A DNA stretch of 16,223 bases. Origin: Nitrospirota bacterium (lineage in GTDB: Bacteria > Nitrospirota > Thermodesulfovibrionia > Thermodesulfovibrionales > Dissulfurispiraceae). Below, piece after piece: positions 1 through 16,223 of the stretch. The first letter of the stretch is position 1. Each line of letters starts with the position of its first letter. The position numbers and the translations under genes are program-made. The notes under the pieces were generated by a model. The model was not told the DNA's origin, did not search any database, and was given only the letters and a program-made list of their open reading frames with translations. Location of the stretch: assembly GCA_040754455.1 (NCBI GenBank), contig JBFMCP010000050.1, forward strand, positions 1 to 16,223, in the 5' to 3' direction.

Positions 1-3
1 TTA

Positions 4-20
4 GAACTCATTTCAAAACC
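4..20 (+). repeat. Left terminal inverted repeat of the IS
   Basis: Exact reverse complement of 823-839. Confidence 0.92.
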
Positions 21-56
21 TCTGAAAGGAATAAAGGATCCATGCTAGAGTGAGGA

Positions 57-835
57 ATGGCATGGAAACATTTAACTGAGAAGCAATGGGAAAAGGTAAG
101 GGAGCATTTACCTGAATATAAACGGAGCCCCAAAGGAGGGCGTCCGAGAGCCAACGACCGAAAGTGCTTTGAAGGAATTCTCTGGATTCTATGGACCGGG
201 GCACAGTGGAGCGAACTACCTAAAGAGTATGGAAGTCCAACAACTTGTTGGAGAAGGCTCAGGGAGTGGGAGGATAGTGGAGTTCTATTGAATCTCTGGC
301 GAGCTTTTCTCTGTGATCTTAGTGACCAGCAAAAGCTGAAGTGGGACGAGTGCTTTGCCGATGGTAGTTTCGTCTCTGCCAAAAAAGGGGAAGGTATGTC
401 GGAAAGACGAAGCGCGGCAAGGGAACGAAGTGGATGGTACTGGTCGATGGCACGGGTACTCCGGTGGGAGCACTCTTGGAGGCGGCTTCCCCGGCGGAAG
501 TAAAGCTCCTTGAGAGGACGTTGGATACGGTGACGGTCGGCCATCCTCAGAGACTGATAGCTGACCGGGGCTATGATAGTAATCCCCTTAGGAGGCGACT
601 GAAAGAGCGGGGGATTGAGCCGATCATTCCGGCCCGTCGTAACAACAGAAAAGCAACGGACCAGGATGGCAGGAAGCTCCGTAGATACAAAAGGAGATGG
701 ATCGTGGAGCGCACGATAGCGTGGTTGGGCCACTTTCGGAGACTCACCATGAGACATGAGCGATTGATCACTACCTATGCCGGTCTGTTTCATATCGCTT
801 GTGCTATGCTCACTTTGAAAAAGGTTTTGAAATGA
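57..835 (+). CDS. IS5-family DDE transposase, split into orfA (57-503) and orfB (to 835), joined by a -1 frameshift near 381-390 (about 259 aa fused)
   Basis: orfA has 'LTEKQWEKV..LP...GGRPR..DR..FEGILWIL.TGAQW.ELP..YG...TCWRR...W...G'. The -1 frame after AAAAAAGGGG reads 'VGKTKRGKGTKWMVLVDG', then 'LIADRGYDS' and 'YKRRWIVERTIAWL..FRRL..R.ER'. These are typical IS5 motifs. Confidence 0.92.
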
Positions 836-839
836 GTTC
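823..839 (-). repeat. Right terminal inverted repeat of the IS (contains the transposase stop codon)
   Basis: Exact reverse complement of 4-20; TGA at 833-835. Confidence 0.92.
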
Positions 840-2634
840 TAGATGGCTCTCATTTGCTCGGGCGGCCAAAGCATCACTACCGCATATGAGCGAAGCGGAA
901 AAGGCAGCTGTCGAGGATTGTATCCTGAATTATTGGGACGAATTGAATCGAGCAAAAGAGATTGCCCATGATTTGGCGAATGGACACCCAGAGGATAACT
1001 TTTACAATCGTCAAACAGTGATCTATTATCTCAATCACAATGGCTATAAACAGTGGAGCATCCTAAAAACAATTGGACCTGATTATCTCTCGGTAAATGC
1101 CACACTAAGATTGGCACTGCTTGAGAGGAAGTTCCAAGGGAAGCGTATTGCCGAGCCCAATACTATCAAAGGAGGCTTAGTCCCGCCACCGATAAGGAGA
1201 GATTGTGCTAAGTTTATGACGGATTCCCAGTGGCTACAGGCAATTCGAGCATATCATAATGGTCGAGAAATCCTTCGAAAAAGCGATCACTGGGTTTTTC
1301 ACTCGGGTGCTAGTGGACTCGCCCAAGTGCTGCAGGAGAGGACGAAGGAGGAACCGGACCGTTTTACTCAGCTTCTCCTGCACCTCCCGGCAGGTACTGC
1401 ACACTACTATCCAGAGGGAATCCTCGTGGGCCTAGCGGACAGTGAAGCCTCAAGTGAAACACTGCTCCGCGCAATACAACATGCCCACTCACAGCCAGAT
1501 AGACCGTTCGGAAGCGGAATCAGCCGCATCTTTCAAGGGCATCCCCTTCTTGCCAACAATGACCAAGCTTTTGAAATCTTACTATGGTACGTTGAGAATG
1601 GAAATGCTTCAACTGAAGGAGAATCCGAAGCAAAACGGGTCGAACAGGAGACCGTGAATGTCGACCAGCTAACGGAAAGAGGCAATGCGCTTCAAATCCG
1701 TGGATACTACGGTGATCGTGGTACTGCAGCTGAAGCGCTCGGAGCAGTGCTTTGGGAATGTCCTTCGAAGATCGAGGAAGGGATAAGTTGTCTTGCTCGT
1801 TGCGTTGCTAACGAGCCGCTATTGAGCATTCGTTGCTCTCTCGTGAGGCCGATCTATTCTGTGCTACGGCATGATAATCAGTGGGCGGCTGATTTGCTGA
1901 GGAGCCTTGTCATACGGGCGGATGGACCAGAGATCACTCCGCTTACAACCTCCGATGGCGTCCATGCGCTCTTCTACATTCTGCATGGTAGCCCAAGTGT
2001 CGGACGGGAACTGCTCGATCTTTTGTTGCAATCCAGTGATGAAAGCCAACAGTTGATCGGAATATACCATTTGTTCCGTGAGGCTTTTTATGATTCAGAC
2101 CTTGCTGAGCGTGCTGATACTCTTATTTCGAAGGATGATGCCCATAGAAAGCTCGCGGCTGATACTGCTGCCAACCACCTGCCATACGCGGAATATCGAT
2201 ATCGAGCGGAGGCCCAATTGGAGACTTTTTTCAATGATCCGGTAAAAGAAATCCGAGCGGAAGCTGCCGAATGCTTTCGGAATCTTAAAACAGATGAAGT
2301 CAATTCCTATCGCCAACTAATGCGAACGTTCATTCAATCAAAAGCTTTTGAGGAAGAAAACTTTTCATTCTTTTTTCTCCTGAAAGGATCGCATGATCAT
2401 GTCTTTGAGGAGGTCGTACTTTCGTCCGAACGCCTGATAGAATTGATAGAAGGTGATAATAAGAGTGGTCCTTTTCGAGAGATGCATTACCTCGAAGATC
2501 TCATTCGAAGGGAATACGCTGCAGTTGCAGACCATCCGGAACTTCGGCGTCGACTCTTAAATGTGATCGACAGAATGTTGTTATTGGGACTGTACGGGAC
2601 AGACCAGATCATCCGAGAACATGAGCGAGGATGA
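840..2634 (+). pseudogene. C-terminal part (about 600 aa) of a large alpha-helical/HEAT-like repeat protein interrupted by the IS; possibly a STAND/NACHT (Avs-like) NTPase sensor region
   Basis: The frame is open from the IS end to TGA 2632-2634, and its first possible starts lie inside the IS. Removing the IS gives ..tt aga tgg.. with no stop. HEAT-like segments include 'LETFFNDPVKEIRAEAAECF'. No P-loop is visible in this part. The family call is recalled resemblance only. Confidence 0.6.
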
Positions 2635-2704
2635 GTTCTGAAATGCTTCTGAGATGCTCAAGCTTCAAAGTGTTATCGAGCAGCTTTGTCGGGTAGGAAT
2701 TTGA

Positions 2705-3007
2705 TTATGCTCTGAGCTCAATAATCCTGATGACCCTTGCATAATCATTTCCCTCAGAGTCTTCGACAGGAGCAAAGAGGACCTTATCCCCAGATCTGAG
2801 TTCAATTCTGGTTCTAAGTAACTCACGGTCATCAATGCTATAGATTGAATTATCAGAGAGGGATTTGATCTTGCCGGTGTTTGTCTCAGGATCGAATTCC
2901 AGGATGATCCCTTCCTCTTTTACATAGAGATCATCCCAGTGTTCTTCCCGTTCCTCTCTGGGGAGGGAGGCTATCGGGAGCTCTTTTTTAACTTTTTTCT
3001 TTCTCAT
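2705..3007 (-). CDS. Small cold-shock-domain-like (OB-fold) protein, about 100 aa
   Basis: 'EGIILEFDPETNTGKIKS....IYSID..EL......LRSGDKVLF.......GNDYARVIRII' follows the CSD pattern G-x-V-x-x-F-x4-G-x-I...L..G..V.F. ATG at 3007 is the likely start, but no clear SD, so the start is uncertain. Confidence 0.55.
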   Translation of the reverse strand: MRKKKVKKELPIASLPREEREEHWDDLYVKEEGIILEFDPETNTGKIKSLSDNSIYSIDDRELLRTRIELRSGDKVLFAPVEDSEGNDYARVIRIIELRA

Positions 3008-3037
3008 TTTTGATGACGAAAACAGGGTTTGAACTCC

Positions 3038-3070
3038 ACCGTCTTGCAACCGTCTTGTTACCGTCTTGTT
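3038..3070 (+). repeat. Three tandem 11-bp direct repeats ACCGTCTTG(CA/TT); candidate integrase arm-type sites
   Basis: accgtcttgca (3038-3048), accgtcttgtt (3049-3059), accgtcttgtt (3060-3070). Confidence 0.85.
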
Positions 3071-3077
3071 GAGACTA

Positions 3078-3114
3078 TTGAGGCCATCACAACGCGGTGT
3101 CGTGATGGCCTCAA
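3078..3114. repeat. 13-bp perfect inverted repeat downstream of the tRNA (possible terminator or att-associated structure)
   Basis: TTGAGGCCATCAC (3078-3090) / GTGATGGCCTCAA (3102-3114), 11-nt loop; no clear U-tract on either strand. Confidence 0.75.
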
Positions 3115-3141
3115 AGTATCTAAATCTTAAGTATTTTTTAT

Positions 3142-3218
<77 letters not shown>

Positions 3219-3413: not shown

Positions 3414-3456
3414 TGATTAATCGGGTAAAAATTTCTATGTGCAGCGGAGTTCCCGA

Positions 3457-4674
3457 ATGGCGAATGAAGATATCTCAAAACTGAAAATAGATAAGGCGGC
3501 AGCAACATTCAAGCCTGCGCGGCGGAAGAGGCCATCCTACCTGATTGCAGCGGCTATCGGCAGTATTGTTCTTATCGCCCTGTTCCTGAGCGGCGTGTTC
3601 ACGCCTGCTACTGAAGTGAAGGTCGCTACGGTTTCGCAGACCTATCCTTACCAGGCGTTTACGGTTTTGAATGCGAGCGGTTACGTCGTTGCCCAGCGCA
3701 GAGCGGCGGTGGCTTCGAAGGTCACCGGGAGACTGGTGTGGCTCGGCGTAGAGGAAGGCAGCCGCGTGAGGAAAGGCGAGATCATCGCCCGCCTCGAAAA
3801 CGAGGATGTCAGCGCGACCCGCAGTCAGGCGGCGGCCAATCTGAATGTGGCCCGTTCCAATCTCGATCAGGCGAAGGCCGAGCTTCGTGATGCCGCGGTT
3901 GCCTATAACAGGGAAAAGGAATTGCTTGAACGCGAGTTCACAACAAAGGCATCGTATGATGCTGCGCTGGCGCGCTATCAGAGGGCACAGGCGGCAGTAG
4001 AAGGTGCGGAGGCAACGATCAGGGCCAATACCGCAGCGCTTAGAGGCGCGGACGTGGCAGTGGAATATACCTTTATCCGTGCTCCCTTCGATGCAGTGGT
4101 GCTCACGAAGAACGCCGACGTCGGCGACATCGTGACTCCTATCGGCGCAGCGGCGGAGGCCAAAGCCGCGGTGGTGACCATTGCCGATATGGATTCGCTC
4201 CAAGTGGAGGCGGATGTTTCGGAATCCAATATCCAGAAGGTCCGGGTGGGCCAGCCCTGCGAAATACAACTGGATGCCCTTCCCGATGTGCGCTTCAGCG
4301 GAGAGGTCCACATGATCGTCCCTACCGCAGACCGTACCAAGGCAACGGTACTGGCAAAGATCCGCTTTATTGATAAGGACAAGCGCATTCTTCCCGAGAT
4401 GAGCGCCAAGGTAGCCTTTCTCTCAAGGCCGGTAGCACCTGAAGAGGAGAGGCCGCGCACCACGGTGAATCCTGCTGCAGTGGTGTCGCGCAATGGAAAA
4501 AAGGCGGTTTTTGTGGTAAAAGATGACCGGGTTATTCTGACGACCATCACCACTGGTGCACAACTCGGCGATGTGGTCGAGGTGCAGAGCGGCGTGAAAG
4601 CGGGGGACCGCGTTGTCCTGAACCCTCCCGAACGGCTGAAGAGCGGGGCGAAGATCAAGGTCGCGGAGAAATAA
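3457..4674 (+). CDS. Efflux periplasmic adaptor / membrane fusion protein (MacA/HlyD family)
   Basis: N-terminal TM helix, 'VASKVTGRLVWLGVEEGSRVRKGEIIARL' lipoyl half, coiled-coil hairpin, 'IRAPFDAVV', 'VEADVSESNIQKVRVGQ'. GGAG RBS before ATG 3457. Confidence 0.93.
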   Translation: MANEDISKLKIDKAAATFKPARRKRPSYLIAAAIGSIVLIALFLSGVFTPATEVKVATVSQTYPYQAFTVLNASGYVVAQRRAAVASKVTGRLVWLGVEEGSRVRKGEIIARLENEDVSATRSQAAANLNVARSNLDQAKAELRDAAVAYNREKELLEREFTTKASYDAALARYQRAQAAVEGAEATIRANTAALRGADVAVEYTFIRAPFDAVVLTKNADVGDIVTPIGAAAEAKAAVVTIADMDSLQVEADVSESNIQKVRVGQPCEIQLDALPDVRFSGEVHMIVPTADRTKATVLAKIRFIDKDKRILPEMSAKVAFLSRPVAPEEERPRTTVNPAAVVSRNGKKAVFVVKDDRVILTTITTGAQLGDVVEVQSGVKAGDRVVLNPPERLKSGAKIKVAEK

Positions 4675-4678
4675 AGAC

Positions 4679-4747
4679 AAATCCTAAATTCCAAACTCTA
4701 AATCCTAAACAATGAATTTTTTCCGTCCGTTTAGAATTTAGAGCTTT
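4679..4747. repeat. Intergenic 7-bp tandem repeats with an inverted copy forming a hairpin
   Basis: aaatcct aaattcc aaactct aaatcct aaac (4679-4710). 4696-4710 pairs with gtttagaatttagag (4729-4743) with one mismatch. Confidence 0.75.
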
Positions 4748-4768
4748 ATCACCAGCGGTGGTATCACT

Positions 4769-5473
4769 ATGGAAAATAACAGACCGTCGATTGTCCGGAT
4801 AAAGAATATCTACAAGTCCTATCGGCGCGGCACCCAGGTTATTCCGGTGCTCCATGATATCACCTTCGATATTGCGGAAGGGGAGTTTCTGGCGCTCATG
4901 GGGCCCTCGGGGTCGGGCAAAAGCACGTTGCTGAATCTTATCGCCGGCATCGACAAGCCGGACAGCGGCACGATCACTATCGGCGGTATCGATATCACGA
5001 CGTTGTCCGAAACCGAGCTCGCCCGGTGGCGCGCCACGAATGTAGGGTTCATCTTTCAGTTCTACAATCTCATACCGGTGCTGACGGCGTTTGAAAATGT
5101 CGAGCTGCCGCTGCTCCTCACGGGACTTTCAAAAGGCGAACGGCATGTCCATGTGGAAATGGCGCTGCGAATTGTGGGACTGGCCGACCGCATGGACCAC
5201 TACCCGGGCCAGCTCTCCGGAGGCCAGCAACAGCGCGTGGCCATTGCGCGAGCGATCGTCACCGACCCGACTATTCTGGTCGCCGATGAACCGACGGGCG
5301 ATCTGGACAAGGTCTCTGCAGGAGAGGTGCTGGGGCTGATGGACCGCCTCAATGCCGAATCGGGCAAGACGATCATCATGGTGACCCATGACCCCCGTGC
5401 AGCGGAGAAGGCACACACCATTAAACACCTCGAAAAAGGTGAGCTGAATGTTTACCCTCAAGCTGCTCGTTAA
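4769..5473 (+). CDS. ABC transporter ATP-binding protein (MacB/LolD-type)
   Basis: Walker A GPSGSGKS, 'GFIFQFYNLIP', signature LSGGQQQR, Walker B ILVADEPTGDLD, H-loop MVTHD. Confidence 0.95.
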   Translation: MENNRPSIVRIKNIYKSYRRGTQVIPVLHDITFDIAEGEFLALMGPSGSGKSTLLNLIAGIDKPDSGTITIGGIDITTLSETELARWRATNVGFIFQFYNLIPVLTAFENVELPLLLTGLSKGERHVHVEMALRIVGLADRMDHYPGQLSGGQQQRVAIARAIVTDPTILVADEPTGDLDKVSAGEVLGLMDRLNAESGKTIIMVTHDPRAAEKAHTIKHLEKGELNVYPQAAR

Positions 5474-6605
5474 GAACGCCTTTCGCCACAAGCTGCGCAC
5501 CTGGCTCACCATTCTCGGTATGACCATCGCGATCCTCGCTTTCGGTCTGCTTCGTACCGTGGTCAGCGCGTGGTACGCAGGCGTCGAAGCGTCTTCTGCC
5601 AACCGTCTCGTAACCAGGAACGCCATATCGCTTGTCTTCAGCCTTCCCATTTCTTACAAGGAAAAGATACGACAGGTGGAAGGCGTGGCCCGGGTCTCAG
5701 CAGGAAACTGGTTCGGCGGCATCTATATCGATGAGAAAAACTTCTTCGCCAACTTTGCCGTGGAACCGAGAAGTTATTTCGATATTTATCCCGAGATCCT
5801 GCTCACCCCTGACCAGAAGGAGGCCTTTCTGCGCGACCGGAAGGGCGCGATCGCCGGGCGCAAGCTCATCGACCGGTTCGGCTGGAAGATCGGCGACACC
5901 ATTACGCTCAAGGGCACCATTTTCCCGGGCAACTGGGATTTCGTGCTGCGCGGTATTTACCGGGGAAGGGACAAGAGTGTTGATGAATCCATGTTCCTCT
6001 TCCATTGGGAATATCTCAACGAGACTATGAAAAAGACCGTGCCGCGCCGCGCCGACCAGGCTGGCTTCTTCATGATCGGGATAGACAACGCCGACCGCGC
6101 CGCCGAGATATCCCTGGCGATCGATGCGCTTTTCAAGAACTCTCTCGCCGAGACCCTGACAGAGACCGAAAAGGCTTTTCAGCTGAGCTTTATCTCGATG
6201 AGCGAGGCCATCGTCGTTGCCATACAACTCGTCTCTTTCGTCGTCATCATTATCATCATGGCGGTCGTGGCGAACACGATGGCCATGACAGCGCGGGAGC
6301 GGATCGGCGAATATGCCATACTCAAGGCACTGGGGTTCAGCGGCCGGCATATTGCGGGATTGATCTTCGGCGAGTCGCTGATCATCTCGATGATCGGCTG
6401 CGCCCTGGGGGTTGCCGCCACGTTTCCGGTGGCAAAGGCGTTCAGCACCGCCCTGAGCCAGTATTTCCCGATCTTCAATGTGGCGACGGCAACCATCTAC
6501 ATGGACATTGCCGCAGCGTTCGTCGTGGGTCTTGTGGCGGCAATCGTCCCTACCTATCGCGCCGTCAACATCCGTATCGCCGACGGACTGCGGAGGATCG
6601 GATAA
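5448..6605 (+). CDS. ABC transporter permease (MacB-like periplasmic core + FtsX domain)
   Basis: 'KNAFRHKLRTWLTILGMTIA' first TM, large periplasmic region, 'NTMAMTARERIGEYAILKALGF' and three C-terminal TMs. Overlaps the ATPase gene. Confidence 0.92.
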   Translation: MFTLKLLVKNAFRHKLRTWLTILGMTIAILAFGLLRTVVSAWYAGVEASSANRLVTRNAISLVFSLPISYKEKIRQVEGVARVSAGNWFGGIYIDEKNFFANFAVEPRSYFDIYPEILLTPDQKEAFLRDRKGAIAGRKLIDRFGWKIGDTITLKGTIFPGNWDFVLRGIYRGRDKSVDESMFLFHWEYLNETMKKTVPRRADQAGFFMIGIDNADRAAEISLAIDALFKNSLAETLTETEKAFQLSFISMSEAIVVAIQLVSFVVIIIIMAVVANTMAMTARERIGEYAILKALGFSGRHIAGLIFGESLIISMIGCALGVAATFPVAKAFSTALSQYFPIFNVATATIYMDIAAAFVVGLVAAIVPTYRAVNIRIADGLRRIG

Positions 6606-7771
6606 TGGGAGTGCCTTTCTACTATAGTTTCCGTAATCTCTGGACGCGCAGGCTCACCACCATCCTTACCGCCCTTGGCATGGCGCTGGTGGTGTTTGTC
6701 TTCGCCTCCATCCTTATGCTCGCCGAAGGGCTCCGGAAGACGCTCGTCGAGACAGGATCATACGACAATGTGATGGTGATCCGGAAGGCGGCGGAATCCG
6801 AGGTGCAGAGCGGTATCGAACGCGACCAGGCTGCGATCGTCGAGACGCAGCCCGAAATCGCCATCGGCCCTGACGGCCAACGGCTCGTTGCAAAGGAATT
6901 GGTGGTGCTCATCAGCCTTCCGAAGAGGGGGACCGACAAGCCCTCCAATGTGGTGATCAGGGGCATCTCCGGACAATCGTTGAATATGCGGCCCCAGGTG
7001 AAGATCATCGAGGGACGCATGCCCAAGCCGGGCTCGTCCGAAATCATGGCCGGCCGGAGCATCGCGAAACGGTTCAAGGGAGGCGGCGTCGGCGAGACCC
7101 TGCGCTTTGGTATGCGCGACTGGACCGTTGTCGGGATTTTTGATGCAGGCGCGACCGGCTTCAGCTCGGAAATCTGGGGTGATGCGGACCAGCTCATGCA
7201 GGCCTTCCGCAGGCCTGTCTACTCTTCGGTGATCTTCACGCTTCGGAATCCCGATGCCTTCGAGACTGTGAAGATGCGCATCGAGAGCGACCCGCGGCTT
7301 ACTGTCGAGGCGAAGAGGGAGACTGAATACTATAAGGACCAATCCGAAATGATGGCCAAGTTTCTCAGCATCCTGGGAATGTCCTTAACCGTGATTTTCT
7401 CTCTCGGTGCGGTCATCGGGGCGATGATCACCATGTATGCAGCCGTTGCCAACCGCACCGGCGAGATCGGTACGTTGCGCGCCCTCGGCTTTCAGCGGAG
7501 GAGCATCCTCGCCGCGTTTGTTGCAGAGTCGCTTTTTCTTGGACTCATCGGCGGCTGCGTGGGCCTCTTCTTCGCGTCATTCATGCAACTGATCACTATC
7601 TCGACCATGAACTTCCAGACCTTCTCGGAGCTCGCCTTCTCGTTCACGCTGACGTTCGACATCATGTATCGGTCGCTGCTCTTCGCTCTCATCATGGGCT
7701 TTATCGGCGGCGTGCTCCCGGCGATCAAGGCCTCGCGGATGAACATCGTCGATGCCCTGCGGGCGAGCTGA
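6605..7771 (+). CDS. Second ABC transporter permease (MacB/FtsX family)
   Basis: Start at the TAATG overlap (6605, MGVPFYYSFRNLWTRRLTT); 'ITMYAAVANRTGEIGTLRALGF'; ends 'IVDALRAS'. Confidence 0.92.
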   Translation: MGVPFYYSFRNLWTRRLTTILTALGMALVVFVFASILMLAEGLRKTLVETGSYDNVMVIRKAAESEVQSGIERDQAAIVETQPEIAIGPDGQRLVAKELVVLISLPKRGTDKPSNVVIRGISGQSLNMRPQVKIIEGRMPKPGSSEIMAGRSIAKRFKGGGVGETLRFGMRDWTVVGIFDAGATGFSSEIWGDADQLMQAFRRPVYSSVIFTLRNPDAFETVKMRIESDPRLTVEAKRETEYYKDQSEMMAKFLSILGMSLTVIFSLGAVIGAMITMYAAVANRTGEIGTLRALGFQRRSILAAFVAESLFLGLIGGCVGLFFASFMQLITISTMNFQTFSELAFSFTLTFDIMYRSLLFALIMGFIGGVLPAIKASRMNIVDALRAS

Positions 7772-7835
7772 GCAGTGGTATTTACGGTGACCACTTGTAG
7801 TAAGATACAGGTAATCATTCCGGAAGGAGAAATGA

Positions 7836-8177
7836 ATGGATCAGAAAAAATTGATGACGCGGGTGAAGTACAAAACGGATAATGAGCGGCTCAATATCAA
7901 CTCTCTGGTGTATTCCATTGCCGATACGGCGATCTTCACGGTGAATAATCTCGTCAATCAGAAGGGGGCCCTCATGATGGCATGGCTCGAGGGAGATACG
8001 CTCCATACGAAGACATTGTACGAGCCTGCAACGCAGGCTACGATCAGTAAGGTGCTGACCATGGAAGACAAGGATGCAAAGCTGATCATGCTCTCGGACG
8101 GCATGATCGTCATTCTCTCGATAAAAGATCCGAAGGGATGCACGCCCCAGATTGTAAAGCAGCAGACAAAGGCATGA
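7836..8177 (+). CDS. Hypothetical protein, 113 aa
   Basis: AAGGAG RBS 6 nt upstream of the ATG, host-like codon usage, fills the intergenic gap; no recognisable motif. Confidence 0.75.
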   Translation: MDQKKLMTRVKYKTDNERLNINSLVYSIADTAIFTVNNLVNQKGALMMAWLEGDTLHTKTLYEPATQATISKVLTMEDKDAKLIMLSDGMIVILSIKDPKGCTPQIVKQQTKA

Positions 8178-8212
8178 ACGGGGCAACCTGAGGCACGTAC
8201 TCCTCTCTTTTC

Positions 8213-8241
8213 TTGCCAAGCACCGGGAACTGCTCTATCAT
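8213..8241 (+). promoter_or_regulatory. Sigma70-type promoter upstream of the IMPase / acyl-transfer operon
   Basis: TTGCCA (8213-8218), 17 nt, TATCAT (8236-8241). Confidence 0.55.
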
Positions 8242-8386
8242 ATCTATATAGAGGGTGTTCACGACAACCATTCTCCGCTTATCCTTTCATCTTTTTCCTG
8301 AGAGCCCTCCCCGGTTGCCTTGTTGAGGGGAACAATTTTTGGTAAGATTACATAACACGTGGTGTGTTGAAAAAAAGGAGCCAGCC

Positions 8387-9175
8387 ATGAAGATCGAGCA
8401 CTTGAGGAAGATCGGAAAGGAACTCTTCTTTGAAATAGGAGAGATGAGGCTGAGGCCCTTTGCCTCTGAGTCCATCGGCAGGGGGGCGGCGGGCGATGCG
8501 ACCTTTCCTATCGATAAGCAGGCGGAAGATATCATCGTCGGCTCTCTTGAGCAGCTCAAGGAGCCCCTGAGCATCATCTCCGAGGAGATGGGCGCCAAGG
8601 GGATTTCGGGGGACGGCAGAATAGCGCTTATCGATCCCATCGACGGCAGCAAGAATGCCATCAACGGCGTTCCCTTCTACTGCTCCTCCATCGCGATTGC
8701 CGACGGCGAAACATTGGGGAGCATATCGCTCGCCTATGTGATCAATCTTTTATCAGGCGATGAGTTCTGGGCCGAACGGGGAGAGGGTGCGTTCTTCAAC
8801 GGTGAGCGCATCGCTACCCAGAAGGACGATCTCTTTTATCTTGTTGCCTATGAGACGCCGCACCCGAGAGAGGACCTGCCCCGGATATTGCCGCTGCTCG
8901 GCGAATCGCGGAGGACCCGCTGCCTCGGCGCTACGGCACTGGACCTTGCCTATCTCGCCTACGGCTCCATCAGCGTTTTCGTTATGCCGTCTCCTTCCCG
9001 GAGCTTTGATTTCGCCGGCGGCTATCTGCTGGTCAAGGAGGCGGGCGGCATAGTGACGGATCTGCAGGGTAATGCCATCGATGAGCGGCAGATCGGTATC
9101 GAGCGGAGTGTTCCGTTGCTTGCCTCGGGAAATCAATCATTGCATGAAAAGGCGTTGAAGCTGCTGAATGGCTGA
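8387..9175 (+). CDS. Inositol monophosphatase family protein (resembles archaeal-type IMPase/FBPase)
   Basis: 'IDKQAE', 'SEE', 'LIDPIDGSKN', 'RTRCLGATALDLAYLA', 'FDFAGGYLLVKEAGGIVTD'. AAGGAG RBS before ATG 8387. Confidence 0.9.
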   Translation: MKIEHLRKIGKELFFEIGEMRLRPFASESIGRGAAGDATFPIDKQAEDIIVGSLEQLKEPLSIISEEMGAKGISGDGRIALIDPIDGSKNAINGVPFYCSSIAIADGETLGSISLAYVINLLSGDEFWAERGEGAFFNGERIATQKDDLFYLVAYETPHPREDLPRILPLLGESRRTRCLGATALDLAYLAYGSISVFVMPSPSRSFDFAGGYLLVKEAGGIVTDLQGNAIDERQIGIERSVPLLASGNQSLHEKALKLLNG

Positions 9176-11789
9176 TACGATCCCCGCGCTCTTCAGGCTA
9201 TCGGCAGAACGATTCAGCGACCGTCGTGCATTCCACTACTTTTCCGGCAGCTCATGGGAGACGATGAGCTATGCCGAATTCTTTGCCCTCTCCGAACGTA
9301 GCGCCGCTTTTCTTTCTCTCCAGGGATTGCGGAGAGGAGACCGCGCCGCTATTATTGCCGAGAACGGACCTGGATGGTGTGCCGCCTACCTGGCGATCGT
9401 GCGATGCGGCGGCATTGCAGTGCCCATCGATATGCAGCTCGGCTCCGGAGAGATCAGGAATCTCCTCCTCGACTCTGAGGCGAAAGCAATACTCTGCAGC
9501 GATAAAACAGCAGCCACTATCCGTGCTGCAACAGACGCCGTTGCAATAAAAATATTCAACATTGATACGGCACCATGGCGCCATGGTGGAACGGAACAGC
9601 AGACTGATGCCCCGGCACTCCGGTGTTCTGTGGCTCCCGACGATATCGCTTCGATTATTTACACCTCCGGCACCACCGGCATGCCGAAAGGGGTGGTGCT
9701 CACCCACCATAATTTTTGTTCCGATGCCGATGCGGTCATCAGGGCCGGCGTCGTCACGCATGATGATAACGTGCTCTCTGTGCTCCCCCTGCATCACACT
9801 TATCCTTTCATGTGCACGTTTCTCGTTCCGCTTTTACTGGGGGCGTCGATCACCTTCAGCCCAGGTCTGAAAGCTGCTGATCTCAGGGCAGCCATAAAGG
9901 ATAAGGGGGTTACCCTGGTGGTCGGCGTGCCGAGGCTCTTTGAGTCGATCAGAAACGGTATTGTCGCAAAAATAAAAGAACGGGGCGCGATCGCAGGCCC
10001 CCTTCTGGCGCTGATGCGGCTGTGCGGCCGGGTGCGAAGGAGCACCGGGCTGAACGTGGGAAAGGTCGTCTTTGCTTCACTCCACCGGAATTTTCCCAAC
10101 GTGAGATTTTTTGCGAGCGGCGGCGCACGGCTCGAACCCTCCCTTATGCACGATCTCGAAGCACTGGGCTTTACGATGGTCGAGGGATACGGCCTCTCGG
10201 AGACTGCGCCGGTTATTACCTTCAACCCTCCGGAAAAAAGAAAGCCCGGCTCTGCCGGGAAACCCCTGCCGGGTGTCGAAATAAGAATAAGCGGAGAGGG
10301 GGAGATCATGGTGAAGGGCCCTATGGTGATGAAGGGCTATTACCGGAACTCTGCGGCAACCGATGCGGTTATCAAGGACGGATGGCTCCTGACCGGAGAC
10401 CTGGGGTATCTTGATCGTGAAGGATATCTCTTCATAACAGGACGGAAAAAAGAGGTGATTGTGCTCAGCTCGGGGAAGAACATCTACCCCGAGGATGTAG
10501 AGAATGCCTATTCGACGATACCGCTCATCAAGGAGCTTTGCGTTGTCGGCAGTGAGCGCGGCGGAAGCATCGATGCGATCCATGCCGTGATCGTTCCTGA
10601 TCTCGATTATGCAAAAAGAGAGTCGATCGGCAATATCACCGAAGCGTTGAGCTGGAGCATAAAAGAGGTCTCGGCGAAGCTTCCTCACTACATGAGGATA
10701 CAGGGTTTTACGCTCTCCTCGGAACCGCTCCCCCGCACTCCGTTGGGCAAGTTGCGGCGCTTTATGGTCAGAGACCTCGTGAAGCGCCGTGAAAAAGAGC
10801 CGCAGCCGGAGCGGAAGGCGGATGAGACGCTGCTCCACGACGAGATAGGGAGGAGTGTGGTGAACAGCATCGTTGCCTTAATGGATGAGAAAGTGCCGGT
10901 GCGCTCGACGGACAGCCTTGAAGTGGACCTCGGTTTTGATTCATTGAAGAAGATAGAATTGATCTCTGCCCTCGAGCATGCCTTTTCCATAGATATCCCT
11001 GATACCTTTATTACCGGGGCGCAGACTGTTGGAGACATTGTTGCTGCATTGAGGGCACATCACGGCGAGGTGACGGGCGGTGTAAGAGAACCGGTGAGCT
11101 GGAAAGATATCCTCGAAAAGGAGCCGTCGCCATCGGACAGGCAAAAGATGGCTGTCGATTACAGCCCTGTCGAGTTGGCTGTCGTCCGCGTCCTTCTCAT
11201 GATCCTGAAGGTGCTCTTCAGGATCGTCTTCCGCCTCGAGGTAAAAGGGGCCGGGCATATACCGGACACCGGCCCTTTCGTGATCGCCCCCAACCATGCC
11301 AGCTATCTCGATGGGTTTGTAGTTGCCGCTGCGCTGCCGTTCGGGACATTTAAAAAGCTTTATTTTCTCGGATTGCAGAAATTTTTTGCCGGCTGGTTTA
11401 CGTCCCGGTTTGCACGACTGGCCCATGTTATTCCGATCGATGCCGAAGTCTACCTCACCAAAGCGTTGCAGTTATCCGCCTACCTGATCAGGAACAACAG
11501 GTCGCTCTGCATCTTCCCCGAAGGCGGCCGCTCATATACCGGAGAGCTTCTTCCCTTTAAGAAGGGGGTGGGTGTCCTGGCGCTGGAGACGGGGGTGCCC
11601 GTTGTTCCCGCATATATCAAAGGAACATATGAGGCACTGCCGCGAGGCTCGCGGTGGATACGGCCGGCACGGATCACCGTGATATTCGGTGAGCCGGTTA
11701 CTGCCGGCCGGCGCGAAGAGGGCGCTGACCGCTATCAGATTTTTGCTGACAGGGTGCGTCAGCGTGTTATGGGGCTATCAAATGATTAA
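9168..11789 (+). CDS. Multidomain long-chain acyl-adenylating enzyme + acyl carrier domain + PlsC-type acyltransferase
   Basis: AMP-binding 'IIYTSGTTGMPKGV', 'GYGLSET', 'TGDLG', 'GRKKEVIV'; phosphopantetheine site 'DLGFDSL'; acyltransferase 'NHASYLD' (HX4D) and 'FPEGGRS'. Confidence 0.92.
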   Translation: MADTIPALFRLSAERFSDRRAFHYFSGSSWETMSYAEFFALSERSAAFLSLQGLRRGDRAAIIAENGPGWCAAYLAIVRCGGIAVPIDMQLGSGEIRNLLLDSEAKAILCSDKTAATIRAATDAVAIKIFNIDTAPWRHGGTEQQTDAPALRCSVAPDDIASIIYTSGTTGMPKGVVLTHHNFCSDADAVIRAGVVTHDDNVLSVLPLHHTYPFMCTFLVPLLLGASITFSPGLKAADLRAAIKDKGVTLVVGVPRLFESIRNGIVAKIKERGAIAGPLLALMRLCGRVRRSTGLNVGKVVFASLHRNFPNVRFFASGGARLEPSLMHDLEALGFTMVEGYGLSETAPVITFNPPEKRKPGSAGKPLPGVEIRISGEGEIMVKGPMVMKGYYRNSAATDAVIKDGWLLTGDLGYLDREGYLFITGRKKEVIVLSSGKNIYPEDVENAYSTIPLIKELCVVGSERGGSIDAIHAVIVPDLDYAKRESIGNITEALSWSIKEVSAKLPHYMRIQGFTLSSEPLPRTPLGKLRRFMVRDLVKRREKEPQPERKADETLLHDEIGRSVVNSIVALMDEKVPVRSTDSLEVDLGFDSLKKIELISALEHAFSIDIPDTFITGAQTVGDIVAALRAHHGEVTGGVREPVSWKDILEKEPSPSDRQKMAVDYSPVELAVVRVLLMILKVLFRIVFRLEVKGAGHIPDTGPFVIAPNHASYLDGFVVAAALPFGTFKKLYFLGLQKFFAGWFTSRFARLAHVIPIDAEVYLTKALQLSAYLIRNNRSLCIFPEGGRSYTGELLPFKKGVGVLALETGVPVVPAYIKGTYEALPRGSRWIRPARITVIFGEPVTAGRREEGADRYQIFADRVRQRVMGLSND

Positions 11790-11845
11790 ATAGCGAAGAG
11801 GACGGCTGCTGTGGTAAAGTTATAGAAACAGGAAAAGGAGTTTTT

Positions 11846-12199
11846 ATGAGCGATTTCAAATACAAACAGTACTCTGACGAGGAAGACAAGATATATAACG
11901 CCGCCATGGAGAAGATACGGCAGGGCATGGAAAACGGCCTGAGCTTCAATGAGGCCTGCAGCACAATCAATGTAAAAGACCATGAATTGAGGGATTTTAT
12001 TGTTGATGACGCTCTCAAAATTAAAATTGCGGAGCTGCATTTCCAGAAGGGACTTCTGCTCCCTGCTGTAGCTGAAACATTAAAGATACCGCTTGCCAAG
12101 ATCCAGACCGCCTATCGGGAGATGCTCGAGGATGTGGGGAATACGGCTGCTGACATGTACCTGATGAACAACCCCGATGGTCCGGTCGGCAATGCCTGA
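11846..12199 (+). CDS. Hypothetical protein, 117 aa, probably helical
   Basis: AAGGAG RBS, TGgTAAAGT extended -10-like element upstream; first gene of a tight four-gene run. Confidence 0.75.
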   Translation: MSDFKYKQYSDEEDKIYNAAMEKIRQGMENGLSFNEACSTINVKDHELRDFIVDDALKIKIAELHFQKGLLLPAVAETLKIPLAKIQTAYREMLEDVGNTAADMYLMNNPDGPVGNA

Positions 12200-12208
12200 T
12201 ATGCGTGC

Positions 12209-12469
12209 ATGAATGAGCAGACAAAACACGTCAAACTCTACGCCCTGAGCACCTGCCCTGTCTGTAAAAGAGTCAGACAGTTCTTGGAGCGCAATGCCAT
12301 TGTGTTCGACTACATCGAAGTGGACCTCCTGGAAAGCGGCGAACAGTGGCTGGCATCGAAGGAAGTAAAGCGATACAACCCTTCGGGCAGCTATCCGACG
12401 GTGGTTGTCGAGGAAGTGATCGCGGGATTCGATGAGGAGGCCCTGAAGAGGGCGCTGGGTATCCCATGA
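12209..12469 (+). CDS. Glutaredoxin/NrdH-like redoxin
   Basis: 'VKLYALSTCPVCKRV' CXXC, cis-Pro motif 'SYPTVVV', 'IAGFDEEAL'. Confidence 0.9.
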   Translation: MNEQTKHVKLYALSTCPVCKRVRQFLERNAIVFDYIEVDLLESGEQWLASKEVKRYNPSGSYPTVVVEEVIAGFDEEALKRALGIP

Positions 12470-12795
12470 CTCCCGAGGAGCTTTATGAGCGGTTGGCACG
12501 CTATGCGGCATCGCAGGGGATCCAGCTCAATAAAGATAGAGCATATGTCTTGGATATCATGCGAGGACTCCTCAAGAATGAGGAACGGTACGGATACCGC
12601 TCCTGTCCCTGCCGTCTCGCCGCAGGCACAAGGGAAAGGGATAATGATATAATATGTCCCTGCGCCTACAGGGACCCTGATCTGAAAGAGTACGGGAGCT
12701 GCTACTGCGGACTCTACGTGACGCAGGAGTGGAATGAGGGATCACGACGGCATCTGAGCGTGCCTGAACGAAGGCCGCCGGAGCGGCATGAATGA
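12466..12795 (+). CDS. Ferredoxin-thioredoxin reductase catalytic-subunit-like protein
   Basis: 'GLLKNEERYGYRSCPCR...DIICPC...G.CYCGLY' gives the CPC/CPC/CxC [4Fe-4S] plus disulfide motif. ATGA overlap with the redoxin gene. Confidence 0.92.
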   Translation: MTPEELYERLARYAASQGIQLNKDRAYVLDIMRGLLKNEERYGYRSCPCRLAAGTRERDNDIICPCAYRDPDLKEYGSCYCGLYVTQEWNEGSRRHLSVPERRPPERHE

Positions 12796-12819
12796 GCAGT
12801 ACGGAGGAGGTTGTAAGCT

Positions 12820-13194
12820 ATGTTATTCAGTGAGCTTCTTTCGCTGAACGATATCAAAAAAGAGCAGTTCGTCATCGATAATATCCGTTGGGACCTTGAG
12901 CCCAAGGACCTGATGGAGCCCCGGACCAAAGTGACGGCAGAGGGGGTAAAGCGCCGGGAGCCGATCAAAGGGTATGTTTTTTATATCGATACGGCGGATG
13001 ATAAGCCGATTCTCTTTCTGATGCGGCACACTGCTGCCGATTATGCGGAGACGCTGGCACGGATCGACGAGATACCACGGGAGCTGCTGGCTGAATCTGT
13101 TGAGGAGAACAAGGCCAGGGCGTATTTCAGAATGTATCCGATCAATAAAAAAGTGGAGGCATGGCTCAAAAAAGAGCTGGGAATAGCAAATTAA
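12820..13194 (+). CDS. Hypothetical protein, possibly DVU0772-family-like
   Basis: GGAGG RBS. 'DNIRWDLEP', 'YVFYID....PILFLMR' and 'ETLARI.EIP' recall the DVU0772-like proteins of sulfate reducers (recollection, unverified). Confidence 0.6.
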   Translation: MLFSELLSLNDIKKEQFVIDNIRWDLEPKDLMEPRTKVTAEGVKRREPIKGYVFYIDTADDKPILFLMRHTAADYAETLARIDEIPRELLAESVEENKARAYFRMYPINKKVEAWLKKELGIAN

Positions 13195-13227
13195 TCGTAG
13201 CTGCACATTTTCGCGGATATTGGTCGG

Positions 13228-13884
13228 TTATGATCTGCCCAACAGCTCTCTGTAGTCCTTCAGTATGGGGAACTCGTGCGAGGGCGCATCCTTTTTCTTC
13301 GAGTTTGCGCCGATCTTCAGGAAGAGATATTTTATGCCGAAGGCCTTGGCGGTCTTGAGCACATTCGCGGTATCATCAACGAAGAGCGACCGCTCTCTGT
13401 CGAATTTCAGCAGTCGCTCTGTTTTTTCCCAGAATTCGATCATCTCTTTGGGATAGCCCATTTCAAAAGAGGTGATGCATCTATCGAAGTATTTTCCTAT
13501 CTGCGTCTTTTTCATTTTTATATCCAGCACCTTGTAATGGGCATTGGTGAGGAGATAGACCTTTTTCTTCTGCTGCTTCATGGCTCTGAGAAAGTCCTCG
13601 ACATGGGGATGCACCTCGATCAGATGGCGGATCTGCTCTTTGAGCGCGGGGATGTCCAGATTGAGCTCCCGCGACCAGAAATCGATATCGGTCCAGTTGA
13701 GGGTGCCTTCGTGGGCCTTGTAGAGCGAGAGCAGCACCTCCTTTGCCTTGCCGAAGGTGATGTTGTGTTTCTCTGCATACCTCTGAGGGACGAGGTGCTC
13801 CCAGAAATAGTCGTCGAAATACCGGTCCAGGAGTGTGCCGTCCATGTCCAGGAGGATGAAATCGATATCCTTGAGCGGAATCAT
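13228..13884 (-). CDS. HAD-family hydrolase, YrfG-like GMP/IMP nucleotidase
   Basis: 'ILLDMDGTLLDRYFDDYFWEHLVPQRY', 'GTLNW..IDFWS..L', 'LLTNAH', 'GYPKE...FW', 'LFVDD'. Confidence 0.88.
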   Translation of the reverse strand: MIPLKDIDFILLDMDGTLLDRYFDDYFWEHLVPQRYAEKHNITFGKAKEVLLSLYKAHEGTLNWTDIDFWSRELNLDIPALKEQIRHLIEVHPHVEDFLRAMKQQKKKVYLLTNAHYKVLDIKMKKTQIGKYFDRCITSFEMGYPKEMIEFWEKTERLLKFDRERSLFVDDTANVLKTAKAFGIKYLFLKIGANSKKKDAPSHEFPILKDYRELLGRS

Positions 13885-14438
13885 TCCTCGCTGCGATACC
13901 AGGAGTGGTCGATATAGTCTTTGGTCCGCTCGTCGACGAGCTCGAGTATGCCCTTGAGTTCTTCAAATATCTCGCTAAAGAGGTCCCCTTCCTCAACATC
14001 TTCGGCGGAGATCGTGTAGGAGTAGGATATTTCGTATTCTTTTGACGGGCCATCACTGGGAAAGACCTCTCTTGTCAGGAGCATCGGCTGGGTATCGGGA
14101 AACTCCTCCTCGATCTCCTCGAGGAGCTCTTCTAAGGCGGGGTGGCGCTCCATGTGGGGGAGCTTTATAATGAAGTCCAGCTCCAGAGAGGTGTCGATGT
14201 CGAGCGCAGCCTCCTCTGACTCGTCTTCGTAGAGGGTGATTCCGGTCTGAAAAGCATCATAGATAAAGGATATCGTGGCCGAAAGGGGATAGGGAGGCTC
14301 CATATGGGGCAGCGTCAGGGAAAACCTGCTCTCCCGATCGAGGGTGAACTGTTCCATGAACACCTGCATGTTGATGATTTCGAGATGATTTTTTGCCGCC
14401 TCCGCGATCTTCATCTGCACTTCTTCAAATCGTATCAT
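13881..14438 (-). CDS. Acidic hypothetical protein, about 185 aa
   Basis: GGAGGGG RBS before ATG 14438; its stop overlaps the HAD start (ATGA); very E/D-rich. Confidence 0.75.
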   Translation of the reverse strand: MIRFEEVQMKIAEAAKNHLEIINMQVFMEQFTLDRESRFSLTLPHMEPPYPLSATISFIYDAFQTGITLYEDESEEAALDIDTSLELDFIIKLPHMERHPALEELLEEIEEEFPDTQPMLLTREVFPSDGPSKEYEISYSYTISAEDVEEGDLFSEIFEELKGILELVDERTKDYIDHSWYRSEE

Positions 14439-14576
14439 GTTCCCCCTCCGAAAACGTCGAGCGCTGTGCGTCAAGCGCCGGGCGAAAAAGCCGCAATAAA
14501 ATAAACGACAATCCTTTGTATGTGGCGCAAAGGCGCCCGATGCTCAACGCATGTTAAAATTATCTGAAATTATACC

Positions 14577-15302
14577 ATGAACGGGAATGGCAAGACGAAT
14601 AAGGTTGCTGTCGTCACCGGTGCGACAGGAGGTCTCGGCAGGCCGATTGCCCTGGCATTCTGGCGGAGCGGCTATCGTGTAGTGATCAATTATGTCCGGT
14701 CCGATCAGGAGGCAAGGGATCTTTTCGCCCTGATGGGTGAGAGGGCAATGGCGGTACGGGCTGATGTGGGCGATTGTGATGAGGTCGCGGCAATGGCCGG
14801 GGCGGTCCGCAGACAATGGGGGGGGGTCGATGTCCTGGTCAATAATGCCGGCATTACCAGAGATGCGCTCCTGATCAAACAGAAAGAGACCGACTGGGAT
14901 GATATTATGAAGACCAATCTCGGCGGCGCCTTTCATATGATCAGGGCCTTTGTACCCCTGATGCACCGTGGAGGGCATGTGGTGAATATCTCTTCCTACT
15001 CGGGGCTGAAGGGGAAGGAAGGGCAGGGGGCCTACAGCGCCTCCAAGGCTGCGCTCCTGGGGCTTACCAAAGCTGCAGCCCATGAATTGGCTGCCCTCGA
15101 TATCCGGGTGAATGCAGTGCTTCCCGGGTACCTGCCGACCTCCATGGGCGAAAAAGCAGCGGCGGCCATGGAGAGAGCGAAAGAGGCAAGTCTCCTGAAC
15201 ACCCTCTCCAACCCCGAGGAAGTCGCCCGATTCATCGTGTATCTTTCAGGGACCACCCATATCACGGGACAGGTTTTCAGCCTCGACAGCAGGATCATAT
15301 AG
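14577..15302 (+). CDS. Short-chain dehydrogenase/reductase, FabG-like 3-oxoacyl-ACP reductase
   Basis: 'VVTGATGGLG', 'LVNNAGITRDALL', 'VNISS', 'YSASKA', 'VNAVLPG', 'ITGQV'. Confidence 0.88.
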   Translation: MNGNGKTNKVAVVTGATGGLGRPIALAFWRSGYRVVINYVRSDQEARDLFALMGERAMAVRADVGDCDEVAAMAGAVRRQWGGVDVLVNNAGITRDALLIKQKETDWDDIMKTNLGGAFHMIRAFVPLMHRGGHVVNISSYSGLKGKEGQGAYSASKAALLGLTKAAAHELAALDIRVNAVLPGYLPTSMGEKAAAAMERAKEASLLNTLSNPEEVARFIVYLSGTTHITGQVFSLDSRII

Positions 15303-15361
15303 AGAGGAATCTCGGCAGCATAATCATACTGAATTAAAATAGTACGGGAGATGGAATAAGA

Positions 15362-16096
15362 ATGCGCTACAAAGGTGTTTTCATAACCGGTACTGATACG
15401 GGTGTCGGGAAGAGCGTTGCTGCTGCCTGCATTATACGGGCGCTCCTGAGGAAAGGGGTAAAGGTCGGGGCGATGAAGCCCATCGAGACCGGCTGCGAAA
15501 ATATTTACGGCAGACTTATGCCGCTGGACGGTACGCTCCTCCGGACCATGGCGGAAATGGATGACCCTGTCGATCTCATTGTCCCCGCTCGCTTTGCCTA
15601 CCCTCTTGCCCCGCTGGTCGCTGCTGAGCTCGAGAAAAAGCCGGTCGATTGTGCTGCGATTATGAATGCTCATACCGCGCTCTCAAGGAAATACGAATTC
15701 CTCGTCGTCGAGGGCGCAGGCGGCCTATTGGTACCCATAACAAAAAAGCAAGGGGCAAGGGGCAAGAGGCAAGAGGTATATTTTATGGAAGACTTGATAA
15801 AGGACTTGCAACTTCCAGTTGTAATCGTTGCCCGCGCAACGCTTGGAACGATAAACCATACGCTCCTCACTGTCGATCATGCAGCGAGCGCGGGGCTCAA
15901 CGTGATCGGAGTGATCATCAACCATTCCTCACCATCGAGGAATAATGATGCCGAGAGGACAACCCCGGTGGTACTGAAAGAACTGTGCCCTGTACCGGTC
16001 CTGGGAGTACTGCCGTATCTCGACAGCATCGCGCCTGGTACGATTGATGAGCTCACCTATATAATCGGAAGCACACTCGTCGATCTTCTCTTTTAA
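15362..16096 (+). CDS. bioD: Dethiobiotin synthase
   Basis: 'FITGTDTGVGKS', 'MKPIETG', 'LVVEGAGGLLVP', 'LGTINHTLLT', 'GVIIN'. Confidence 0.95.
   Translation: MRYKGVFITGTDTGVGKSVAAACIIRALLRKGVKVGAMKPIETGCENIYGRLMPLDGTLLRTMAEMDDPVDLIVPARFAYPLAPLVAAELEKKPVDCAAIMNAHTALSRKYEFLVVEGAGGLLVPITKKQGARGKRQEVYFMEDLIKDLQLPVVIVARATLGTINHTLLTVDHAASAGLNVIGVIINHSSPSRNNDAERTTPVVLKELCPVPVLGVLPYLDSIAPGTIDELTYIIGSTLVDLLF
15748..15775 (+). repeat. Four tandem 7-bp repeats GCAAG(G/A)G inside bioD
   Basis: gcaaggg gcaaggg gcaagag gcaagag, within the 'KQGARGKRQE' segment. Confidence 0.85.
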
Positions 16097-16223
16097 TTCA
16101 ATAGTTTCAAACCTACTGAACAATATGGTTTTTATCTGAAGTTCTGACATGTCTCCATGCATTGTCACTCTGTTGACGTTATAACGGTGATATTTTCCGA
16201 TGCACTCCACAGATTTGCATTGT

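Follow-up and report, generated by a model that had tools for sequence, protein, structure and literature searches.

Avs7 is an antiviral STAND (Avs) protein, and the apo structure of the Salmonella enterica member, SeAvs7, has been deposited as 9N00 (Lee et al., bioRxiv 10.64898/2026.01.04.697583). That preprint describes Avs7 as a Cap4 nuclease joined to a STAND NTPase and a bilobed tetratricopeptide repeat (TPR) sensor. The sensor of SeAvs7 wraps around the major capsid protein (HK97 fold) of tailed phages, and host EF-Tu is incorporated and boosts assembly of the complex; capsid binding lifts autoinhibition, and an asymmetric tetramer with bound ATP results, in which the Cap4 domains cut DNA. 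The preprint also reports that the Avs7 sensor is common to Dsr1, is found across several STAND clades, occurs in fusions with 20 or more types of effector, and has been widely transferred horizontally. It counts 90 or more STAND families that are associated with defence and differ in structure, with 14 different triggers, and it names terminase and portal as the proteins recognised by the Avs3 and Avs4 sensors (bioRxiv 10.64898/2026.01.04.697583). Here we analyse a stretch of 16,223 nucleotides from a Nitrospirota bacterium (positions 1 to 16,223 of contig JBFMCP010000050.1, assembly GCA_040754455.1), the whole of which is called the window below. Near its left end lies an open reading frame (ORF), at 841-2634, that is probably the 3′ part of a single-gene Avs7-type antiviral STAND system disabled by an insertion sequence (IS).

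RESULTS

An open frame truncated by an insertion sequence

The frame that follows the IS (Table 1) has a translation that holds all three peptides quoted in a preliminary description of this DNA, which had seen about 600 codons of helical, HEAT-like sequence without a native start and a gene cut by an IS. By BLASTP, residues 1-596 of the 597-codon remnant aligned with residues 927-1523 of P0003, a 1,524-aa protein and its closest relative, at 68% identity and with a single one-residue gap. Since the 597 codons from position 841 align end to end with this C-terminal part of P0003, the remnant has no native start. About 61% of the gene is absent from the window and the 3′ 39% is present. The IS has perfect terminal inverted repeats of 20 nt at 2-21 and 822-841, and similarity to the relatives begins at the first base past the right-hand repeat. 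The insertion point corresponds to codon 927 of ∼1,524, and about three bases of the window lie to the left of the IS. On each of these points the preliminary description was borne out.

We found no sign of decay in the remnant. Its frame is uninterrupted and reaches the usual C terminus of the family (...EHER-x-stop), and it deviates at 1 of the 110 positions at which 90% or more of the other 28 sequences in the alignment agree. At the same 110 positions the 23 closest intact relatives deviate at 0 to 6, and the six most distant rows of the alignment at 8 to 25. This suggests that the disruption is recent or, less likely, that the piece is still under selection. The form on record is shorter: P0063 (582 aa) is 100% identical to residues 16-597 of the fragment, and the Atlas entry is the same sequence from residue 16 onward.

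The AlphaFold2 model of the 597-aa fragment was almost entirely alpha-helical, with a mean confidence (pLDDT) of 88.7, and its fold matches in the PDB, found with Foldseek, were ARM/HEAT solenoids such as the designed repeat protein 4rv1 (E 5e-6), importin-alpha, and CAND1. A Pfam scan of the fragment returned HEAT only, below threshold (E 0.085), and an NCBIfam scan returned no family match. The helical, HEAT-like character noted before is confirmed, the fragment being modelled as an all-helical solenoid.

Predicted architecture of the full-length relatives

A search for longer homologues, limited to proteins of 1,046-2,985 aa, recovered 60 proteins, 54 of which are 1,468-1,624 aa long; the fragment aligns at their C-terminal ends. 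The preliminary description had named full-length homologues that are stand-alone or housekeeping proteins of ∼600 aa as a finding that would speak against it; the relatives are not of that kind. In an exhaustive search of cluster representatives with the fragment, 1,277 matches were obtained at E ≤ 1e-3. Among the best 150 representatives, 78 (by hand count) are at least 1,389 aa long and match at ∼920-1520, and the other 72, of 212-1,363 aa, mostly match to their own C termini, as fragments at contig edges would.

From sequence patterns and structural models, the intact relatives appear to consist of an N-terminal PD-(D/E)xK nuclease-like domain, a STAND NTPase, and a helical sensor of ∼900 aa. 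Pfam located a P-loop NTPase at ∼250-570 in all seven full-length relatives that were scanned; the matching families were AAA, AAA_16, NACHT, nSTAND1, nSTAND3, nSTAND_NTPase5, and NB-ARC, all under their curated cut-offs except AAA. We then aligned the first 620 residues of relatives from 42 of the 80 genomic loci analysed below, namely those with intact ORFs whose match starts at residues 1-4. The NTPase residues that are invariant in these 42 sequences are GxGKS (G280, G282, K283, S284), DQxD (D347, Q348, D350), C385-R386, and H542. An AlphaFold2 model of the first 620 aa of the copy in Geotalea sp. SG265 (pLDDT 88.1) found its best fold matches in Avs3 (8dgc, E 1e-15) and Avs4 (8dgf, E 2.5e-14), followed by NLRP9, NLRP3, NOD2, and NLRC4. 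The relatives thus have the Walker A and B motifs, the conserved arginine, the winged-helix histidine, and the NACHT-like fold of the STAND NTPase superfamily.

In the first 250 residues of the same 42 sequences, K8, E14, E36, and K61 never vary and E46 and Q59 hardly at all, a pattern that fits a predicted PD-(D/E)xK nuclease with a QxK motif. The preliminary description had allowed for an effector of an undescribed type. This is not supported, since the relatives carry a Cap4-type nuclease-like domain, and their N terminus aligns with the N-terminal nuclease domain of SeAvs7, which is of the Cap4 PD-(D/E)xK type.

Colinearity with SeAvs7 and comparison with other systems

A profile of the full-length family, built from 50 sequences, matched the SeAvs7 chain 9n00_A (labelled 'AAA family ATPase', 1,523 aa) at E 6.2e-53, far above all other PDB sequences. 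The match consists of two colinear stretches, in which profile positions 5-646 fall on residues 5-649 and positions 998-1525 on residues 984-1522 (i-E 1.4e-9); the second stretch spans most of the part that is kept in the window. A profile of the N-terminal 619 positions gave E 2.6e-47 (5-613 on 5-618), and one of the N-terminal 250 positions alone gave E 2.2e-7 (5-190 on 5-191). The Walker A lysine (K283), Walker B aspartate (D347), CR-motif arginine (R386), and winged-helix histidine (H542) of the family align with K292, D358, R395, and H545 of SeAvs7, which the preprint names. The long homologues, the P-loop NTPase, the Avs3/Avs4-like fold, and this profile match support the earlier idea that the remnant comes from the C-terminal repeat sensor of a very large protein of STAND/Avs type, with its N-terminal parts on the far side of an IS.

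The full-length relatives share with SeAvs7 the order of parts (Cap4-type nuclease, predicted in the relatives, then STAND NTPase and long helical sensor) and the length (1,524 versus 1,523 aa), and both are single-gene. They differ in that the similarity is distant, with no pairwise match for the sensor fragment, in that residues 1-926 are missing from the window's own copy, and in that the closest relatives are Desulfuromonadales or Geobacter-like bacteria and not enterobacteria. Avs3 (8DGC) and Avs4 (8DGF), which are likewise proteins with a nuclease, a STAND module, and a repeat sensor, are the top structural matches of the N-terminal 620 aa of the relative over ∼590-710 aligned columns, but their sequence identity to it is 13-16%. 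PDC-M54A, protein A of the PADLOC candidate system PDC-M54, is the best PADLOC match of the full-length relatives (E 1e-16 to 5e-8 in six of seven). Dsr1, a SIR2 protein with an Avs7-type sensor, has the Avs7 sensor and the capsid trigger according to the preprint (bioRxiv 10.64898/2026.01.04.697583), whereas the relatives carry an NTPase and a nuclease-like domain, not SIR2.

How the intact relatives may work

By homology to SeAvs7, as its mechanism is given in the preprint (bioRxiv 10.64898/2026.01.04.697583), a bilobed helical sensor of ∼900 aa (residues ∼620-1524) would clamp a phage protein, which in SeAvs7 is the HK97-fold major capsid protein, with EF-Tu as helper. Binding would free the STAND NTPase (∼250-620) from autoinhibition, ATP-bound protomers would then tetramerise, and the N-terminal Cap4-type PD-(D/E)xK nuclease (∼1-230) would cut DNA, so that the infection is aborted. 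The trigger, the use of EF-Tu, and the nuclease activity are carried over to this subfamily by analogy and are to be read as presumptive. The piece in the window corresponds by alignment to SeAvs7 984-1522, including the EF-Tu-contact residues (999-1059) and capsid-contact residues (1204-1361) that the preprint names. Since this distal piece, without NTPase and nuclease, cannot signal or kill, the copy in the window is a broken defence gene, that is, a pseudogene, whose NTPase and effector are not in the window.

The interrupting element

The element is an IS5-family IS with two ORFs; it has a length of 840 bp, perfect 20-nt repeats, DUF4096 and DDE_Tnp_1 domains, and an A6G heptamer in the overlap of the two ORFs. 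Both ORFs match NCBIfam NF033580 (transpos_IS5_3). The heptamer, at 381-387, lies within a stretch that is open in both frames, ORF B being read in the -1 frame with respect to ORF A; the IS thus appears to be intact and may be expressed by programmed frameshifting. It may have arrived by simple insertion, with the other half of the gene upstream of it, or may have caused a deletion, and the TA at each of its ends may be a target duplication rather than IS sequence. Presumably the element belongs to the IS427/IS1031-like group of IS with two overlapping ORFs. A DNA search of a plasmid collection with the IS gave one match, of 135 nt at 73%, and no close relative. We rejected an outward promoter within the IS or just past it because promoter-like sites were at the level of shuffled sequence, with 4 found and 3.7 expected.

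We note that another member of the family has been struck independently by an IS. In Geobacter sp. UBA6151 (DIUT01000049.1, L007:10599-11882) the gene is cut near codon 200 by an insert of ∼1.3 kb that encodes a 428-aa DDE_Tnp_1/DUF4372 transposase.

Spread and neighbourhood of the family

A scan of genomes, one per species, was made with patterns from the N-terminal half of the family, so that the window's own genome was beyond its reach. Of 318 candidate stretches, 288 were confirmed as relatives, and all analyses of loci refer to the best 80 of these 288. The loci belong to Desulfuromonadales and Geobacter-like bacteria (the closest, with 50-52% identity to P0003), rhizobia, gammaproteobacteria, cyanobacteria, Acidobacteriota, Chloroflexota, Planctomycetota, and one Methanothrix. 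Of the 80 loci, 64 have the gene as one ORF of 1,435 aa or more; in the other 16 it is cut by contig ends (4 loci) or broken internally (12 loci). The Methanothrix sp. case (L065, JAXGJB010000046.1) is a 1,511-aa ORF cut by the contig end in an archaeal metagenome-assembled genome (MAG), and it represents either cross-domain transfer or a binning error.

A conserved partner gene was looked for and rejected, as the largest family of neighbours occurs in only 8 of the 80 loci, at varying positions and on both strands. The family is a single-gene system. In the eight closest loci, the Pfam domains of the 44 neighbouring ORFs are mostly of housekeeping type (GlnE, IleRS, transketolase, PFOR, DnaX/RecR, EF-G), and since this is so the family gene tends to be a small insert among core genes. 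Scattered among them are toxin-antitoxin or defence-like genes, including PIN, zeta-toxin-like, YhcG nuclease, Fic, and M78 peptidase genes.

We scanned neighbours with PADLOC in 19 of the 80 loci (L001-L019), covering 119 of the 473 ORFs that lie within 5 kb and are 150 aa or longer. At E ≤ 1e-8, 17 of these 119 ORFs (10 of 19 loci) matched, versus 6 of 80 ORFs (5 of 19 loci) at 5-10 kb. Among them are strong and specific matches to DISARM DrmD (E 1e-74) and DrmMI (E 1e-230), PDC-S71 (E 2e-120), PDC-S02 (E 3e-165), an AbiLi/AbiLii pair, PD-T7-1, SoFic, PD-Lambda-2_B, and AbiEi.

The tRNA-bordered segment and the rest of the window

To the right of the remnant, the 3′ end of an initiator tRNA-Met(CAT) points toward it from ∼500 bp downstream. 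In this tRNA, A1/C72 is unpaired and the anticodon stem has three G:C pairs (GGG/CCC), which we take to be the textbook marks of an initiator. The GC content is 0.471 for 842-3141 and 0.547 for 3439-16223, and GC at third codon positions (GC3) is 0.447 in the remnant versus 0.592-0.751 in the nine genes right of the tRNA. By composition, the tRNA-Met is thus the apparent border between an AT-richer segment, foreign in composition, and the housekeeping genes, much as the preliminary description had placed it. The same description had spoken of a tRNA-linked island. Composition and position agree with this, but family scans found no integrase gene in the window, 842-3141 included, and the window has no direct repeat of the 3′ end of the tRNA. 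The far border of a tRNA-integrated island would be outside the window, and we do not class the segment as one. Between 1182-1195 and the tRNA 3′ end (3138-3151) there is an inverted match of 14 nt (93%); its left arm lies within the codons for a conserved PPPI motif, and the match was taken as chance. Linkage to tRNA is not a trait of the family, because a tRNA was found in the ∼10-kb flanks of 13 of 60 loci scanned, with many anticodons, which by a rough estimate is about the chance rate. The only clear adjacency among these 60 loci is that of tRNA-Leu(TAA) ∼100-125 bp upstream of the family gene in Mesorhizobium sp. RMAD-H1 (L035:9790-9875) and in a Methylobacterium MAG (L039:9813-9898).

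Between remnant and tRNA lies a small ORF whose product has a lysine-rich N terminus; it had no match in Pfam, NCBIfam, or PADLOC, and it is not an integrase. A terminator scan made no call at the inverted repeat near the tRNA, since there is no T-run on either strand. Right of the tRNA the genes are housekeeping-like and include a MacAB-type efflux system, an inositol monophosphatase, an AMP-binding/carrier/acyltransferase fusion, an SDR, and a BioD-like protein. The second FtsX-type ORF of the efflux operon probably starts near 6605, since the listed ORFs 5448-6605 and 6005-7771 overlap.

Table 1. Features of the window and their coordinates
Feature	Position	Strand	Basis or remark
IS5-family insertion sequence, 840 bp	2..841	+	inverted repeats; DUF4096 + DDE_Tnp_1; NF033580
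IS ORF A	57-503	+	DUF4096, E 1.5e-24 (Pfam)
IS ORF B	434-835 as listed; frame open from 368	+	DDE_Tnp_1, E 5.5e-21 (Pfam)
Open frame	799..2634	+	ORF list; first 14 codons (799-840) IS-derived
Probable Avs7-like antiviral STAND gene remnant, distal helical sensor	841..2634	+	597 codons + stop
Same frame from first ATG	886..2634	+	582 aa; form on record, not native start
Small ORF, 100 aa from ATG (114 aa from TTG at 3049)	2705..3007	-	ORF list
Hairpin-forming inverted repeat, 16-nt arms, 5-nt loop, 94% complementary	3078..3114		∼30 nt past the tRNA 3′ end
Initiator tRNA-Met (CAT)	3142..3218	-	ARAGORN; Rfam RF00005 at 63 bits
MacAB-like efflux operon	3439-7771		HlyD/RND adaptor 3439-4674; ABC ATPase 4769-5473; two FtsX-type permease ORFs
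AMP-binding enzyme + phosphopantetheine carrier + acyltransferase fusion (Aas-like), 873 aa	9168-11789		adjoins inositol monophosphatase gene

DISCUSSION

Several results weigh against the assignment of the remnant to an Avs7-type gene. With phmmer, the fragment alone gave no match to PDB sequences at E ≤ 10, so that the sensor link to SeAvs7 rests on the profile (E 1.4e-9), and the Foldseek set in which the fragment model found generic ARM/HEAT folds was searched without the SeAvs7 entries (9N00, 9N01, 9YIX). PADLOC, which the preliminary description had proposed as a check, had no match for the fragment at E ≤ 1; its Avs4 model was matched by one of seven relatives, at E 3e-4, its Dsr1 models by neither the fragment nor the seven relatives, and PDC-M54A is matched in the NTPase region only (profile positions ∼300-640 of 1,621-1,657), with the sensor unmatched. 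Pfam found Cap4_nuclease in just 1 of 10 N termini, at E 0.029. The 5′ half of the gene was not found, in that no protein of ∼940 aa at ∼68% identity was listed when the N-terminal 927 aa of P0003 served as query. The neighbourhoods of homologues did yield some strong defence genes such as those of DISARM and PDC-S02, but enrichment near the relatives does not reach significance (Fisher p 0.18, whether counted by ORFs or by loci), and 3 of 10 housekeeping ORFs of the window itself match PADLOC through generic ABC and FtsX domains. Since the ABC ATPase (4769-5473) and FtsX permeases (5448-7771) match mad3 (E 5e-31) and CARF_LolE_TM (E 4e-16), matches to single PADLOC hidden Markov models over-call defence genes. 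As a candidate for the missing 5′ half, P0238 (943 aa) was rejected, having 40% identity and an unrelated tail without the expected IS-derived end.

Given the limits of a profile-only sensor link and of the PADLOC and Foldseek results, we file the gene as Avs7-like and leave a minor share of probability to a sister family, still truncated by the IS, of proteins with Cap4, STAND, and helical sensor that are not Avs7 proper and respond to another phage trigger, with or without EF-Tu. A sensor that resembles that of SeAvs7 by profile and not pairwise, and that is unmatched by any PADLOC Dsr1 or Avs model, would fit such a family, as would the number of STAND families and triggers given in the preprint. 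The matches to SeAvs7, however, are colinear at both ends, between proteins of nearly equal length with the same type of N-terminal domain, and the preprint places the Avs7 sensor in several STAND clades, with wide transfer. That the remnant is instead a housekeeping HEAT/ARM-repeat protein outside defence is scarcely credible: the fold matches of the fragment are generic, and its Atlas look-alikes are labelled merely 'HEAT repeat domain-containing protein', but its relatives have a STAND NTPase and a nuclease-like domain that match Avs3, Avs4, and SeAvs7, their spread over many phyla and one archaeon is patchy, and the composition of the segment is foreign.

It is also quite improbable that the ∼600-aa product is a working stand-alone protein, for example the sensor half of a split system or a capsid-binding decoy. 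In favour of it, the frame is unbroken and shows no decay, the transposase genes have the same orientation and so could allow read-through transcription, and split proteins are mentioned in the methods of the preprint. In addition, P0067 (606 aa) starts at 929, two residues after the junction, and P0231 (925 aa) and P0238 lose similarity at ∼913-925. Against this stand the start of homology exactly at the IS repeat, the lack of a native start or ribosome-binding context, promoter-like sites at chance frequency, and the single long ORFs of most genomic relatives, no locus of which has a 925/600 split; the short database proteins are of all lengths, like fragments from contig edges. The breaks near 927 in P0067, P0231, P0238, and the window could reflect a hinge, a hotspot, frameshifts, or chance. 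As a speculation to which we give little credence, breaks in the family might cluster at a hinge near residue 925, between proximal and distal sensor, with the distal piece persisting as a working stand-alone module expressed by read-through from the IS, for instance as a decoy that binds capsid or EF-Tu, or to modulate other sensors of Avs7/Dsr1 type; separately, and as part of the same long shot, the Desulfuromonadales subfamily might sense a trigger other than capsid.

Under the assignment that we favour, to an IS-disabled Avs7-type gene, the ORF of ∼600 aa that is on record as 'HEAT repeat / hypothetical' would be the tail of an immune gene killed by an IS. This matters little beyond annotation, because the family already has a characterised and structurally solved member in SeAvs7. 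Through this analysis the range of the Avs7-like Cap4-STAND architecture comes to include Desulfuromonadales and Geobacter-like bacteria as well as many other phyla. The IS strike in Geobacter sp. UBA6151 and the several copies with broken frames are in keeping with the rapid turnover that is usual for defence genes. If the trigger of this subfamily differs from the capsid protein, its intact relatives would be useful for mapping the specificity of the sensor.

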